NCBI GenBank assembly: GCA_028282585.1
Contig: JANQHR010000079.1
Coordinates: 1 to 31,052, forward strand
Direction of reading: 5' to 3'
DNA: 31,052 bases
DNA from: Bacteroidales bacterium
GTDB lineage: Bacteria; Bacteroidota; Bacteroidia; Bacteroidales; UBA12077
Part shown: piece after piece, positions 10,328 through 16,186 of the stretch
Numbering within the stretch: the first letter of the stretch is position 1
Layout of the letters: each line of letters starts with the position of its first letter
Translations under genes and position numbers: made by a program
Notes under the pieces: generated by a model
What the model saw: the letters and a program-made list of their open reading frames with translations, nothing else
What the model was told of the DNA's origin: nothing
Databases searched by the model: none

Positions 10328-11914
10328 ATGCAAAAAAGACTACTTTGGATTATTACAATAATTTTATCGGTTACTCTAATATGTTTAATATTTGTTCAGG
10401 TTTACTGGATAAAAAATGCTGTTAAAATTAAAGAGGAGCAGTTTTACCAATTGGTAAATAATGGGATGGATAATATTGTAAAAGAAATTGAGAATCGTGA
10501 GATGATTTCTCAGGTTGTAAATGAAATGGAACCATTCCAGGATGTCTCGCCGTACGGAAGTCCGTCAATAAATTACAGATCAAACCAAATGTCTCAAAGT
10601 ACTTATGGATTATCTTCAACAAGTCAGGAAAAAGAAGTTTTTGTTCTTCAGAATACAGATTCATTAAGTGTAAGCTCACAACTCAAACTTTTGGGCAAAA
10701 ATGTAATACAGATCAATAATCAACCAGCTTTAGGAATAGATAATATACAAAAACAAGAATCATTTGGAAATTTAAGACTAAATATAAATTTTAATGAGAA
10801 ACTAAATAATCGAACAGTATTTGTTGAAAATGTAGTAAATAAACTAATTCAGATTGATGTCGATATTGAGGATAGAATTAATAAAGAAACTGTTGAGCAA
10901 ATAATTAGGAATTCATTTCATGAATTGGGAATTGATATTGGATATGAGTATGTAGTAACTAAGAATAAATACAAGGCAGTCTACAGTTCAGATAATTATG
11001 ATGCAAGAGCAAAGGCCAAGAAATTTTCAACGAAACTATACCCAAATGATGTACAGGATAAAAGCAATTATTTATTCTTGTACTTTCCAAGTGAAAAGAA
11101 TTTTATTTTTCAATCAACAAGTTTCATGACATTTTCTTCAACAATACTTACGATAATTATTATACTTGGATTTTCGCTTTCAATTCATATAATGTTCAAA
11201 CAAAAAAGGTTATCACAAATTAAAAATGATTTTGTGAATAACATGACTCATGAGTTAAAAACCCCGATTTCCACTATATCTCTGGCTTCGCAAATGCTAA
11301 AAGATGATTCAATACCTGTGGAGGTTAAAAACCTGGGTTATATTTCAAATATTATTGATGATGAAAGTAAGCGTTTAAGTTACCAGGTTGAAAAGGTACT
11401 TAAAACAGCTCTTTTTGAACAAGGGCAGATTAAACTTAAACGTAGAGAAATTAACATTCATAAACTAATTGAAAACGTAATTAAGAATTTTGATATACAA
11501 GTAAAATCAAGAAATGGAGATGTAATTAAAAAGCTGATAGCTGAAAATCCGGTTTTAAATGTTGATGAAGTTCATTTTACAAATATTATCTTTAACTTGC
11601 TTGACAATGCGGTAAAATATAGTGACGAAGAGCCCAATATAACCGTATCAACAAAACAAAATGGTAAAGGCATATTAGTTTCAGTTGCTGATCAGGGAAT
11701 CGGGATAAGAAAGCAGGATCAGAAAAGAATTTTTGATCAGTTTTATCGAGTTTCAACAGGTAATTTGCATGATGTTAAAGGTTTTGGTTTGGGTTTAAGT
11801 TATGTTAAGAAGATTGTTGATGCTCACCATGGAGAGATTAGACTAAAATCTGAATATAGAAAAGGAACAACTTTCGAGATATTTATTCCAAATAATCATA
11901 TAAACAATGGATGA
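10328..11914 (+). CDS. rprX: Sensor histidine kinase, RprX-like
   Basis: Two TM helices around a periplasmic domain; NNMTHELKTP H-box; NLLDNAVKY, DQGIGI, GFGLGL; overlaps an RprY-like regulator. Confidence 0.85.
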   Translation: MQKRLLWIITIILSVTLICLIFVQVYWIKNAVKIKEEQFYQLVNNGMDNIVKEIENREMISQVVNEMEPFQDVSPYGSPSINYRSNQMSQSTYGLSSTSQEKEVFVLQNTDSLSVSSQLKLLGKNVIQINNQPALGIDNIQKQESFGNLRLNINFNEKLNNRTVFVENVVNKLIQIDVDIEDRINKETVEQIIRNSFHELGIDIGYEYVVTKNKYKAVYSSDNYDARAKAKKFSTKLYPNDVQDKSNYLFLYFPSEKNFIFQSTSFMTFSSTILTIIIILGFSLSIHIMFKQKRLSQIKNDFVNNMTHELKTPISTISLASQMLKDDSIPVEVKNLGYISNIIDDESKRLSYQVEKVLKTALFEQGQIKLKRREINIHKLIENVIKNFDIQVKSRNGDVIKKLIAENPVLNVDEVHFTNIIFNLLDNAVKYSDEEPNITVSTKQNGKGILVSVADQGIGIRKQDQKRIFDQFYRVSTGNLHDVKGFGLGLSYVKKIVDAHHGEIRLKSEYRKGTTFEIFIPNNHINNG

Positions 11915-12599
11915 AAATAAAGTAAAAATAATGTTGGCCGAAGATGATGAAAATCTGGGCACTTTATTACGCGAATACTTATTAGCCAAAGGCCTAAATA
12001 CAGATTTATTTGTAAATGGAGAACTCGCGTTGGATGGATTTAAAAATAGCAAATATGATCTTTGTATTTTAGATGTTATGATGCCTAAAATGGATGGATT
12101 TACGTTAGCAAGGGAGATTAGAAAAATCAATTCGAAGGTGCCATTTATATTTTTAACTGCAAAATCGCTTAAAGATGATGTTATAGAAGGATTTACCGTT
12201 GGTGCAGATGATTACATTACAAAGCCGTTTAGTATGGAAGAATTGCTGTTTAGAATTAAAGCAATTTTAAGGAGAACCGGCTCAAACCATGTTTCTGAAG
12301 CAAATGAAAAATTTGCAATAGGTGATTATACATTTGACTCTCAGAAACAAATACTTAAAATTGGAGAAAAGGAGCAAAAATTAACTACAAAAGAATCTGA
12401 TTTATTAAAACTTCTGTGTAATAATATGAATACCGTTTTGGAGCGGAATTTTGCTTTAAAAACCATTTGGCAGGAAGATAGTTACTTCAATGCCCGAAGC
12501 ATGGATGTTTATATAACTAAACTAAGAAAATATTTAAAAGAAGACTCTTCTATCCAGATCTTAAATATTCACGGAAAAGGTTATAAACTGATTGTATAA
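11907..12599 (+). CDS. rprY: OmpR-family response regulator, RprY-like
   Basis: AEDDENLG..L.EYL, LDVMMP, FLTAK, GADDYITKPF, winged helix YFNARSMDVYITKLRK. Confidence 0.9.
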   Translation: MDENKVKIMLAEDDENLGTLLREYLLAKGLNTDLFVNGELALDGFKNSKYDLCILDVMMPKMDGFTLAREIRKINSKVPFIFLTAKSLKDDVIEGFTVGADDYITKPFSMEELLFRIKAILRRTGSNHVSEANEKFAIGDYTFDSQKQILKIGEKEQKLTTKESDLLKLLCNNMNTVLERNFALKTIWQEDSYFNARSMDVYITKLRKYLKEDSSIQILNIHGKGYKLIV

Positions 12600-13143: not shown

Positions 13144-13671
13144 GTGGAAAAAACTACTCATTCAAAATACCTTTTTAAAAATAAGTCATTACCTAAAGAT
13201 TATTTTCCTCCTATTATTGTTGGATATAAAATTAAAACACCTGAAAATATTGGTAATATTATACGCGTAGCCGATAATATTGGATGTAAGGAAGTTTTTT
13301 TTATAAAGGATAAAGAGGAAATCAGAGAATCAAAGATAAAAAAGACAGCTTCCTCTAGTTACCATTCAATTAAATGGGGGTTTTATAATTTCCTGGAATT
13401 AGAGGAATTAGTTCCAAATGACTATTCATGGATTGCTGTTGAAACCTCAAGCGACTCTGAAAGTATATACCATTTAAAATTACCTGCAAAATGCGCTTTT
13501 TTTGTTGGGAATGAAATACATGGAATAGATTTAAATATTCTTAATAAATGTGATAAAACTGTTCATATACCATTAAATGGAAATAATACCTCAATGAACG
13601 TATCTCACGCCTTAGTAGTTGCTGTATTCGAATGGCAAAGGCAAATTATACATTGCAAATTCCAAAATTAA
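13144..13671 (+). CDS. TrmH/SpoU family RNA methyltransferase
   Basis: PENIGNIIRVAD, VGNEIHGI, IPLNG...SMNVS; GTG start. Confidence 0.88.
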   Translation: MEKTTHSKYLFKNKSLPKDYFPPIIVGYKIKTPENIGNIIRVADNIGCKEVFFIKDKEEIRESKIKKTASSSYHSIKWGFYNFLELEELVPNDYSWIAVETSSDSESIYHLKLPAKCAFFVGNEIHGIDLNILNKCDKTVHIPLNGNNTSMNVSHALVVAVFEWQRQIIHCKFQN

Positions 13672-13756
13672 CGTTTCACGTGACCATACCTCTTGTTGAT
13701 TTTCAGTAATATAGAGTGAAATTTTATTAACAAATTATTGCATGAATTGATTTTTA

Positions 13757-13846
13757 TATTAACTTTAATGTACAGTATAGTAATAATACATTTTGTATAG
13801 TAGAACTTTGCAGCTTATAGAACGTATATCCTAGTATTAACTTTAA
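13757..13846 (+). promoter_or_regulatory. Phased direct repeats upstream of the small peptide ORF
   Basis: TATAG at 13776, 13796 and 13816 (exact 20-bp period; GTATAGTA in the first two), bracketed by TATTAACTTTAA at 13757 and 13835. Confidence 0.35.
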
Positions 13847-13857
13847 AAATTAATGAC

Positions 13858-13968
13858 ATGAAACAAGAAAAAATCAACTCATGCGGTGTTGCCTTAAACA
13901 AAATGTCTGGTGGGGATGAAGGTGGTAATGGGACAGGTAGTGGCAGTGGAGAACAAGAACCAGGTTAG
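13858..13968 (+). CDS. 36-aa Gly-rich peptide with a double-glycine-like leader (MKQEKINSCGVALNKMSGG-DEGGNGTGSGSGEQEPG)
   Basis: ATG 13858 to TAG 13966-13968; A-rich start context TTAACTTTAAAAATTAATGAC; G-rich coding island in AT-rich DNA; followed by a hairpin and the TPR kinase gene. Confidence 0.6.
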   Translation: MKQEKINSCGVALNKMSGGDEGGNGTGSGSGEQEPG

Positions 13969-13993
13969 ATTTAAATGTGAACAAATTAATGGT

Positions 13994-14026
13994 AAACCTA
14001 ACAACACTAAAAATGTTGTTAGGTTT
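13994..14026 (+). terminator. Hairpin between the peptide ORF and the kinase (leaky terminator or mRNA-stabilising stem)
   Basis: AAACCTAACAACA-ctaaaaa-TGTTGTTAGGTTT, perfect 13-bp stem with no further U tail. Confidence 0.55.
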
Positions 14027-14089
14027 GGTAAAACAAGTTATTTACTAAATATTTAATCTCTTTTAGGAAATACTGAAGGTACTAATAAA

Positions 14090-16186
14090 ATGAAGAAAAT
14101 TATAAAACTTTTTCTTTTTATAGTTGTAGGTTTGGTAATTGCTCAGACACAAGTTATTTATTCAACTCCTGATAATCTAGATAGCCTTAAAATGAAGGTT
14201 CGAAGTTTACAAGATGATACATTAAAAGTGTTGGAATTGGCAAAATTATCCAAAAGATATTCTAAAAATCAAGCTGACTCTTCTTTAACTTTAGGGCTGG
14301 AAGCCTTAGATTTATCGAGAAAGTTAGGTTATCAGTATGGAGAAGCTTATAGCTCATTCATATTAGGCATTTCATATAAATATCTTGGAGATTATAACAA
14401 ATCAATTGAATATGCAGAAAATGCGTATAATATATTTAATCATATAAAAAACGAACCATATAAAGCGAGAGTTTTAAATTCTTTAGGTAATTTGTATAAA
14501 AGAAAAGGAGACTTTGAAAAAGCCATTGTGAATTTTACAATTTCTATGGATATTTCTAAAAGAATTAAAGATTCTATCATGCTTTCTGCCTTATATAATA
14601 ATATTGCTGTATTATACTATGAATTAGGAAATAGACATGAGCAATCACTTGAATATCATAAGTTAAATTTGGAATTGCTTAAAAAGGTGGGTGATAAGGG
14701 AAATATTTTTAATTGCTACATGAACCTTGGGAATGTCTATAAAGATATGAATGATAATGAAAAAGCATTGGACTATTATCGACAATCATTAGATTATCTT
14801 GAAGAAAATAATTTATATGATAAACTCCTTTTAGTCCATAATTTAGGAACGGTATATGAGAAATTGAAAAAATATGAACTAGCTCTACGCTATTATAATG
14901 ACGCGATTGAACTGGAGAAAATTATGGGTAATAAAGGAATGCTTGTATATTCTCTTCAAGGCGTGGGAAATGTTTTATTATCACAAGGGAGTTTTGTAGA
15001 AGGGGAAAAGTATTTATTAAAAAGTTATACCCTAGCTAAGGAAATTGGTGACTTGACTAAACAAAAAAGGTTAGTTAATAATCTTAAAAAAGTATATGAA
15101 AAGCAGGGAAATTATAAAGAAAGTTTGAAATACCTGGAAATATATGATGACATAGAAGATAGTATTTATAATATTAATTATATTAAGCAAGTAACTTTAT
15201 TAGAGCAAAAATATGAAACGGAAAAGAAACTACAACAAATAGCTTTCCTTGAAAAAGAAAATGAGATACATAAATTAGAAATCAAAAATAAAGAAATTGA
15301 GAATAAACAAAAAAGTTTTCAAAGAAATGTATTGATAATTGCGGTTTTTGTTACCATATTATTGACTTTTTATTTTGCTTTAAATAGTAAGAAAAGGAAA
15401 AAAATAAATATGCTACTCATTAAACAGAATAAAAAGATAATTGACCAAAGAGAAGAGATCGGTAAGCAAAATGAAGAGCTTTTAGATTCGAATAAGACCA
15501 AAGATAAGTTGTTCCAGATTATTGCGCACGATTTAAGAAGCCCTTTAGTTTCAATGGACAGTATAACGCAGCTAATTCCGTACTGGATTGAAGAGCAAGA
15601 TTATGAATCTTTAAAAAAGCTATCGCAAACTTTAGAACTTTCTGTAAATAATGTACTTTCCCTGATAGATAATTTGCTGAATTGGGCACTTAATCAGCAG
15701 GGGAAATTTCCTTACCAACCGGAAAACCTTAAACTTAAAGAAAATATAATTGAGACCATTGAAGTTTATAAGCCCATAGCCGAAATAAAGAATATTGATT
15801 TGAAGTTTACTTTCACTAAAGATGTGCGCGTATTTGCCGACAAGGATATGTTATTTACGGTTATGCGAAATTTATTAAATAATGCTATAAAATTTACACC
15901 CGAGCATGGACAAATTACGGTTGGAATTGATAGCAATGTCCAATTTGCAAAGGTTTGGGTAAAAGACTCAGGAGTTGGAATCCCTAAGGGAAGAAAGGAA
16001 GAGGTTTTTGAATTGGCAAATGGAATTCATAAAGGAACTTCCGGAGAAACAGGTAAAGGATTGGGGTTATTTTTCTGCAAAGAATTTGTTACCATGAATA
16101 ATGGCGATATTTTTATCGAAAGCCAGGAAGGACGAGGAACTACTATAACATTTACACTTCCGTTATTTAATTTAGCAGAGAATTAA
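14090..16186 (+). CDS. Tetratricopeptide-repeat sensor histidine kinase (orphan)
   Basis: N-terminal signal; about 6-7 TPRs (NSLGNLY, NNIAVLY, MNLGNVY, HNLGTVY, QGVGNVL); coiled coil KYETEKK; TM VLIIAVFVTILLTFYFAL; IIAHDLRSP H-box; RNLLNNAIKF, DSGVGI, GKGLGL. Confidence 0.92.
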   Translation: MKKIIKLFLFIVVGLVIAQTQVIYSTPDNLDSLKMKVRSLQDDTLKVLELAKLSKRYSKNQADSSLTLGLEALDLSRKLGYQYGEAYSSFILGISYKYLGDYNKSIEYAENAYNIFNHIKNEPYKARVLNSLGNLYKRKGDFEKAIVNFTISMDISKRIKDSIMLSALYNNIAVLYYELGNRHEQSLEYHKLNLELLKKVGDKGNIFNCYMNLGNVYKDMNDNEKALDYYRQSLDYLEENNLYDKLLLVHNLGTVYEKLKKYELALRYYNDAIELEKIMGNKGMLVYSLQGVGNVLLSQGSFVEGEKYLLKSYTLAKEIGDLTKQKRLVNNLKKVYEKQGNYKESLKYLEIYDDIEDSIYNINYIKQVTLLEQKYETEKKLQQIAFLEKENEIHKLEIKNKEIENKQKSFQRNVLIIAVFVTILLTFYFALNSKKRKKINMLLIKQNKKIIDQREEIGKQNEELLDSNKTKDKLFQIIAHDLRSPLVSMDSITQLIPYWIEEQDYESLKKLSQTLELSVNNVLSLIDNLLNWALNQQGKFPYQPENLKLKENIIETIEVYKPIAEIKNIDLKFTFTKDVRVFADKDMLFTVMRNLLNNAIKFTPEHGQITVGIDSNVQFAKVWVKDSGVGIPKGRKEEVFELANGIHKGTSGETGKGLGLFFCKEFVTMNNGDIFIESQEGRGTTITFTLPLFNLAEN

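Follow-up and report, generated by a model that had tools for sequence, protein, structure and literature searches.

What is a 36-codon open reading frame (ORF) doing directly upstream of a sensor histidine kinase that carries an array of tetratricopeptide repeats (TPR)? The question arises at position 13858 of a contig of 31,052 nucleotides (nt) from a Bacteroidales bacterium of the lineage UBA12077 (GenBank JANQHR010000079.1, assembly GCA_028282585.1), which was analysed at its full length and is called the window here. An earlier note, made from the letters of this DNA alone, had read the ORF as the gene of a peptide that is cleaved behind a double-glycine leader, exported and sensed by the kinase. 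Comparison of the locus with its relatives leads to a different best reading, namely that this mini-gene is a local, shortened member of a narrow small-protein family found in one Bacteroidales genus and in one homologue outside it. The only universal features of this family are its position and its tail.

The ORF at 13858-13968 lies on the forward strand, begins with ATG and encodes a product of 36 residues, as given by both the ORF listing and the sequence; the translation is the same as in the earlier note. The start context and the base composition described there were also recovered. The 20 bases 5' of the ATG are A/T-rich and contain a run of A, and the second half of the ORF (13906-13968) forms a G-rich island with 43% G, compared to 18% in the window and 13% in the flanking intergenic DNA. 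The intergenic DNA and the peptide are both single-copy, the window being the only match in a search of its own genome. An identical 36-residue sequence is present in the protein collection, and a 38-residue relative was obtained from public records. The window peptide matched no NCBIfam family at E ≤10 and no Pfam family at E ≤1, and it has no hydrophobic signal sequence.

The genus consists of uncultured Bacteroidales that are represented by metagenome bins only. Of the 37 genomes considered, 30 were assessable at this locus; two were cut by contig ends, and five others, with a completeness of 63-91%, yielded no orthologous kinase. To count as tail-bearing, an ORF had to start with ATG, encode 20-150 residues and end in 18 residues of which at least 72% are Asp, Glu, Gly, Pro, Ser, Thr or Asn and at least three are acidic. 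The gap between the SpoU methylase gene and the TPR kinase gene holds at least one such ORF in 30/30 assessable genomes, whereas in the genome to which the window belongs 13 of 25,177 small ORFs qualify. The genes also follow the same order throughout, namely kinase, OmpR-type regulator, 5-formyltetrahydrofolate cyclo-ligase, SpoU methylase, gap, TPR kinase, PNPOx-like protein and thioesterase. The mini-gene stands in this gap directly upstream of the orthologous TPR kinase and behind a conserved promoter block. A sample of 401 genomes of the order yielded the family in four cases, three of which belong to this genus. The sole homologue from outside the genus comes from another family of the order, and 126 nt downstream of it there is again a TPR membrane protein with the same architecture. 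The scan for conserved small ORFs upstream of homologous kinases that the earlier note had proposed was thus positive in every assessable genome of the genus and at this outside homologue. Among 1.84 billion representatives, the family amounts to 12 clusters, all with members of 112-118 residues and acidic tails.

Some relatives carry a second kinase in tandem, and four of the five such kinases have an ORF of their own that encodes 29-31 residues with a proline-rich acidic tail. These arrangements, with the second TPR kinase directly after the first, are found in the genomes G023, G042, G048 and G018 (L103:150-639, L104, L105 and L009:3750-3842), and the second kinase of G008 has no small acidic-tail ORF. 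A complete locus of the Bacteroidales type was also found in L039 (JBKHIH010000016.1), a record labelled Thiohalospira sp. that is probably mislabelled or mis-binned.

The usual occupant of the gap is larger than the mini-gene. Among the loci read first, 17 have in the gap an ORF of 112-118 residues, here called the long form, which lacks a signal peptide. Its predicted structure (overall mean pLDDT, the predicted local distance difference test, 71.6) contains a six-stranded beta domain, with block means of 70-89 over residues 11-90, followed by a tail at residues 91-112 that is predicted to be disordered (pLDDT <50). A fold search with the long-form model against the PDB gave 0 matches at E ≤0.001, the best TM-score being 0.45 to a Bacteroides DUF1344 protein (E 0.8). 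Searches of the long forms, and of the paralogues with Gly-Gly leaders described below, against Pfam and NCBIfam returned sub-threshold hits only. The tail of the long form is acidic and Gly-rich and has six invariant columns, all six of which are kept in the window. At the DNA level, the tail of the window aligned to the long-form tail of one relative with a score of 43, compared to a shuffle maximum of 30 (z 8.5); of the ten DNA comparisons made, eight were not above shuffles (z -1.4 to 3.3).

The beta domain of about 90 residues is absent from the window, where no frame of 13672-13857 matches it. It is also absent from seven other primary loci and from the tandem second modules. Short forms of 30-40 residues occupy eight primary loci (G000, G046, G015, G016, G019, G043, G044 and G045) and consist of an N-terminal piece of 12-24 residues and a tail of about 17-20 residues. 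A kinase tree was built by a quick IQ-TREE run on 33 rows, none of which was dropped, and was rooted with the outside homologue. The long form takes the basal position on this tree, and four changes are required to explain the short forms, no fewer than three of them on well-supported branches, so that the domain was lost repeatedly while a tail-bearing ORF was kept. The short form of G015 (L017), of 32 residues, has an uninterrupted run of ten prolines and is followed by a textbook terminator; translation of a ten-proline run should need elongation factor P.

How the short form of the window arose can be read in two ways. It may be the 3' third of a long form that acquired a new internal start, or its ATG may be the ancestral one. 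An internal start is supported by a local alignment with the equivalent DNA of one relative (z 4.6) and by what resembles a decayed start, spaced from the first promoter block as would be expected. However, the second copy of a 12-mer upstream of the mini-gene, the A-rich leader and the ATG also resemble, by eye, the leader and start of the relatives.

Loss of the domain could also mean that the gene is decaying, in which case most of a long-form gene was deleted and the 36-codon ORF is a leftover accidental frame that has no function. The missing beta domain fits this explanation, and so do the closure of the frame upstream of the ATG by two TAG codons (13798-13803), the weak score of the window against the long-form profile and the 61 nt before the second 12-mer, which are only 45% identical to the sister species (G046). 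Comparison with this species, whose kinase is 82% identical and whose ORF encodes 37 residues, speaks against decay. Identity to the sister is 89% at 13661-13770, falls to the 45% of the next 61 nt, and rises to 92% at 13832-13857 and 90% in codons 1-16, so that the leader and the first 16 codons stand above the surrounding spacer; the tail is 54% identical with one 3-nt indel. Although the tail DNA has diverged by 46% and contains in-frame indels, the ORF, its start, the position of its stop and the hairpin that follows are all kept. The stop codon is in the same place but differs, being TAG in the window and TAA in the sister. A third public orthologue, of 38 residues, likewise keeps the ORF with an in-frame length change and the same stop position. 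Premature stop codons in close relatives, which the earlier note had named as evidence against a peptide gene, were thus found neither in the sister nor in the third sequence. The independent shortenings in other lineages also retain a tail-bearing ORF. We therefore consider a functionless remnant highly improbable, and the least likely of the rival explanations, whereas the mini-gene is very probably real.

The DNA around the mini-gene (Table 1) carries a promoter-like block on one side and a hairpin on the other. The non-coding stretch 13661-13770, which follows the SpoU stop codon and contains blocks kept genus-wide, is more conserved relative to the sister species than are the tail of the small ORF and the neighbouring spacer, and is likely the operator or promoter region. 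Its promoter-like block was found in the window and in all eight aligned relatives; the fit to the Bacteroidota promoter consensus was judged by eye. The two copies of the 12-mer lie 78 nt apart and are both retained in the sister species. The 12-mer occurs 16 times in the 4.9 Mb of the genome, as does its reversed control, which is a background frequency, and the pair may have arisen by duplication of a promoter element or may be bound by a regulator. A scan for sigma-70-type promoters was uninformative (6 sites compared to 5.7 expected), and a search of 13400-14400 against Rfam came no closer to a gathering score than 26.3 bits of the 60 required. The only sequencing run listed as containing this stretch is of DNA and may be the source sample; no RNA run is among them.

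Table 1. Features of the small-gene and kinase locus in the window (positions of the whole stretch).
Feature	Position	Strand	Remarks
Promoter-like block	13750..13768	+	-33-like TTG about 19 nt upstream, then -7-like element; first 12-mer copy 13757-13768
Second 12-mer copy and A-rich leader	13835..13857 (12-mer 13835-13846)	+	Abuts the start codon
36-codon small gene	13858..13968	+	Codons 1-16 conserved; 13906-13965 is the acidic Gly/Ser-rich tail
Stem-loop between small gene and kinase	13994..14026	+	13 perfect pairs, 7-nt loop
Sensor histidine kinase	14090..16186	+	N-terminal hydrophobic segment, TPR array ~22-405, coiled coil, transmembrane (TM) segment ~413-433, HisKA, HATPase_c
Second histidine kinase and OmpR-type response regulator	10328..11914 and 11907..12599	+	Assigned by Pfam

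The perfect 13-bp hairpin that the earlier note had seen behind the ORF was confirmed. Its arms (13994-14006 and 14014-14026) fold with -18.2 kcal/mol (z -4.99), a value matched by 0/200 shuffles. A simple terminator scan made 0 calls, this hairpin included, because no T-run follows the stem. Equivalent strong hairpins were found 3' of the short ORFs in three relatives (z -5.2 to -5.6), and two of them, those of G015 and G019, are then followed by a U-run. The sister species retains the hairpin, whose 5' arm differs there by two A-to-G changes. Since these changes can pair only as G-U, the pairing holds only in RNA of the forward strand. The hairpin is likely a partial terminator or an RNA-stabilising end. 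The mini-gene would be transcribed from the block at 13750-13768, most transcripts would end at or be stabilised by the hairpin, and some would read through into the kinase gene.

This arrangement invites an explanation in which the ORF acts only in cis, as a hard-to-translate acidic Pro/Gly stretch that together with the hairpin tunes read-through into the kinase or its translation, the peptide itself being without function. The succession of short ORF, strong hairpin and kinase is shared by the window and three relatives, two of whose hairpins are textbook terminators, and the tails of several relatives are proline runs or Asp/Glu interspersed with prolines. Such a make-up has been described as ribosome-destabilising (bioRxiv 10.1101/2021.02.02.429294). 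In addition, the DNA of the leader and the first 16 codons is conserved without a sign of selection at the protein level. However, most species have the form of 112-118 residues with a confidently folded domain, for which a leader peptide has no need, and the paralogues with Gly-Gly leaders suggest that the tail is what is exported. In the window itself, the tail lacks a proline run and contains just five acidic residues. When the ORF and the hairpin were folded together, the whole fold did no better than shuffles (z -0.65), no competing pairing appeared in the centroid and the hairpin stood alone; alternative RNA structures that couple translation to a terminator, as in MgtL-like attenuators, were thus not found. 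We consider a purely cis-acting leader unlikely.

The reading proposed in the earlier note, of a double-glycine precursor that a C39-peptidase ATP-binding cassette (ABC) exporter cleaves after Gly18-Gly19 to release the 17-residue acidic core as a secreted, quorum-sensing-like ligand of the kinase, was examined at the junction itself. Double-glycine leaders carry hydrophobic residues at positions -4, -7, -12 and -15, Glu at -8 and Gly-Gly at -2/-1. The window peptide fits this pattern at the Gly-Gly, at -4 (Met16) and at -7 (Leu13) only, positions -8, -12 and -15 being off, and it matches no leader family. The junction reads Ser-Gly-Gly in the window and in the third orthologue, which suits such a precursor, but Pro-Glu-Gly in the sister species (Ser17 to Pro, Gly18 to Glu). 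In 11 of 12 short forms, as judged by eye, a proline directly precedes the acidic tail. Given the proline junctions, the Pro-Glu-Gly of the sister and the poor fit to the leader pattern, the Gly-Gly of the window looks like part of the tail rather than a proven cleavage site.

Far better leaders are present in relatives. A search with a DNA pattern found canonical-looking mini-genes with a Gly-Gly leader in five of the 37 genomes of the genus, one in each and only at this locus. A sixth stands in a second module, and a seventh is broken by an in-frame TGA. In each of these paralogues the leader is joined to a tail of the family type, with the cut site exactly before the tail, so that such tails could plausibly be exported in this family. 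Their leaders fit the pattern by eye, and the hits to lantibiotic leader families (E 0.045 and 0.093) are below the cut-off. The cores of three of the six are most like, or tied with, the tail of their own module. In G023, a Gly-Gly-leader ORF with a matching proline-rich core is present in addition to the small ORF of the second kinase. The broken copy, in G010 (L012 / L038:2329-2430), has its TGA eight codons past the ATG; it probably represents a pseudogene, unless an internal Met serves as its start.

For the window itself, these paralogues and their weak lantibiotic-leader hits count in favour of an exported pheromone, as do the exporters of the genome. The earlier note had found no exporter in the window, and none was identified among the ORFs scanned there (ten of the larger ones in one scan and five in another) or in the related loci examined; a search of the genome nevertheless yielded three full-length candidates for C39-peptidase ABC exporters on other contigs. 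Two further Gly-Gly peptides of the genome can be added on the same side. These are encoded by two tandem ORFs of 41-42 residues at C108:25520-25924 (L106:5520-5924); both products are basic at the N-terminus and have a short acidic core behind a Gly-Gly-type leader, and their matches to leader families stay below threshold (BLP family E 8.8e-4, ComC E 0.008). They are divergent from the gene of a 916-residue TPR and CHAT protein with a signal-like N-terminus (L106:2710-5460), so that acidic peptides are paired with a TPR protein at a second place in this genome. The good-leader pattern, however, has 0 matches in the genome of the window. Together with the misfits and the sister junction, this makes an exported double-glycine pheromone improbable for the window peptide.

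The kinase downstream is the presumed partner of the small gene. Its gene is co-oriented and begins 121 nt past the stop codon of the mini-gene, and its product contains six TPR_12 stretches (E 9.4e-40) followed by HisKA and HATPase_c domains according to Pfam. Only two groups of hydrophobic 19-residue windows were found, starting at residues 1-8 and 409-416, and the second segment is followed by a cluster of basic residues. Since these two segments flank the TPR array, the array lies between them and is predicted to be periplasmic, outside the cytoplasmic membrane. The extracytoplasmic TPR sensor described in the earlier note therefore stands as a prediction from the hydrophobic segments. The TPR part evolves faster than the kinase core, at 74% compared to 97% identity to the sister species. 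The best named family for the kinase is FimS of Porphyromonas (NCBIfam NF053520), at 229 bits against a cut-off of 600 bits.

The kinase had also been described as an orphan in a window that holds no response regulator. This is not the case. An OmpR-type regulator lies 1.26 kb upstream of the module and is the nearest to it, although it adjoins and is paired with another kinase; the pair (ORFs of about 538 and 231 residues) occupies the same place relative to the module across the genus. Elsewhere in the genome, a paralogue of the TPR part of the kinase, 58% identical over residues 5-465, is encoded at C120:32077-33411 directly after a LytTR-type regulator, with no small ORF there. Its open frame is about 501 residues long and its kinase half may be missing.

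On these grounds, we lean towards a small gene that acts on the neighbouring kinase through its tail. The tail would be the working part and most likely a ligand or modulator of the TPR sensor of the kinase. The evidence that points this way is the linkage of the two genes, the repeated loss of everything except the tail, the exported-looking paralogues and the binding of acidic C-terminal peptides by TPR domains. Such binding is described for peptides such as EEVD (PMC11259706, PMC8913300). In a bolder version, the acidic tails are cognate ligands of periplasmic TPR sensors in a Bacteroidota system of peptide or small-protein signalling, the tail being released or exported. Gly-Gly-leader paralogues would then leave the cell by C39-ABC export and the other members by another route, and the duplicated modules, with their Gly-type and Pro-type tails and their own kinases, would behave like pherotypes. 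We regard this version as rather doubtful.

Several observations weigh against a family whose tail addresses the TPR sensor. The primary long and short forms have no signal peptide or recognisable export leader, yet the TPR array is predicted to be periplasmic. Across 19 orthologues the TPR region carries a net charge of -6 to +8, close to neutral, and so does not complement an acidic tail in overall charge. Tail types track the kinase tree, as plain co-inheritance would also have them do, and the remaining three Gly-Gly cores rank the tail of their own module 5th, 8th and 27th of 32. Membership of the window ORF in the family is itself not strongly scored. The long-form profile gives its frame 8.5 bits (conditional E 8.5e-4), equivalent to E ~15 when all 125,650 frames of the genome are considered, and a genome-wide profile search did not recover it; homology thus rests on position and on a low-complexity tail. 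Codons 1-16 differ from the sister at five sites, by eye three non-synonymous and two synonymous, so no purifying selection at the protein level is visible there, and a G-rich tail rarely gains stop codons anyway. Coding status is accordingly supported by the frame, the stop and the family context and not by the substitution pattern. A complex prediction for TPR residues 22-405 (alignment of 19 rows) with the 36-residue peptide scored 0.02 against a mark of 0.32 and weighs neither way.

Among known systems, the module comes closest to a cassette of peptide and kinase or to a small protein that modulates a kinase, and the defining features of the named families tested were not found in it. As in the Firmicutes cassettes ComC/ComD/ComE, BlpC/BlpH/BlpR and AgrD/AgrC, the small gene adjoins the kinase that is its presumed target, and the tandem duplication of the module with distinct Gly-rich and Pro-rich tails can be likened to them. 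A Gly-Gly-type leader before the presumed active part is shared in the five relatives only. The Firmicutes sensors are polytopic, whereas here a periplasmic TPR array is followed by a single membrane anchor, and the polytopic kinase with an adjacent LytTR or cognate regulator that marks systems of the ComCDE and Agr type is absent. The module also lacks a LytTR regulator and an exporter, no leader is recognisable in the window peptide, the family is typically represented by a folded protein of 113 residues with its tail, and the host is a diderm of the Bacteroidota. RRNPP systems combine a cytoplasmic TPR receptor that has a DNA-binding or phosphatase output with a propeptide exported by Sec and re-imported by Opp. 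In contrast, the TPR array of the window kinase lies between a hydrophobic and a TM segment and is fused to HisKA and HATPase_c, and the peptide has no signal sequence.

The small-protein modulators MgrB and SafA, which act on PhoQ, and Sda, which acts on KinA, work directly on the kinase. They are encoded near a two-component system or under its control, as is the case here, but they are membrane helices or small folded cytoplasmic proteins and are not known to work through a disordered acidic tail or to be tied to a TPR sensor. The EEVD ends of Hsp70 and Hsp90, bound by Hop, CHIP and PP5, are likewise extended acidic C-terminal peptides that serve as TPR ligands; unlike the window kinase, these TPR proteins are eukaryotic and cytosolic and have no kinase output. 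The build is shared with FimS of the FimS/FimR pair of Porphyromonas gingivalis, the best-studied kinase with a periplasmic TPR sensor, in which a TPR sensor between two hydrophobic segments is also followed by HisKA and HATPase_c. Because its score stays far below the family cut-off (229 of 600 bits), the window kinase is not an orthologue of FimS. The signal of the periplasmic TPR sensor of FimS is reported as unknown (PMC11053733).

The best-ranked open literature, with subscription journals not covered, contained no description of such a module. The Gly-type module, the long form and the count across the genus come from the present comparison. The reach of the finding is limited by the narrowness of the family (the 12 clusters noted above) and by its uncultured hosts. 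TPR-sensor kinases are common in Bacteroidota, and in this genus a small gene is tied to such a kinase throughout. A class of kinases that has no known signal thereby gains a candidate partner. The loss of the domain with the tail kept, and the Gly-Gly copies that carry the same tail, indicate the tail as the part to test. This tail, the conserved part of the gene product, is short, disordered, acidic and accessible by synthesis, so that the question of whether it is a TPR ligand is directly testable. If the proposal is true, these tails would be the first candidate ligand class for TPR sensor kinases.

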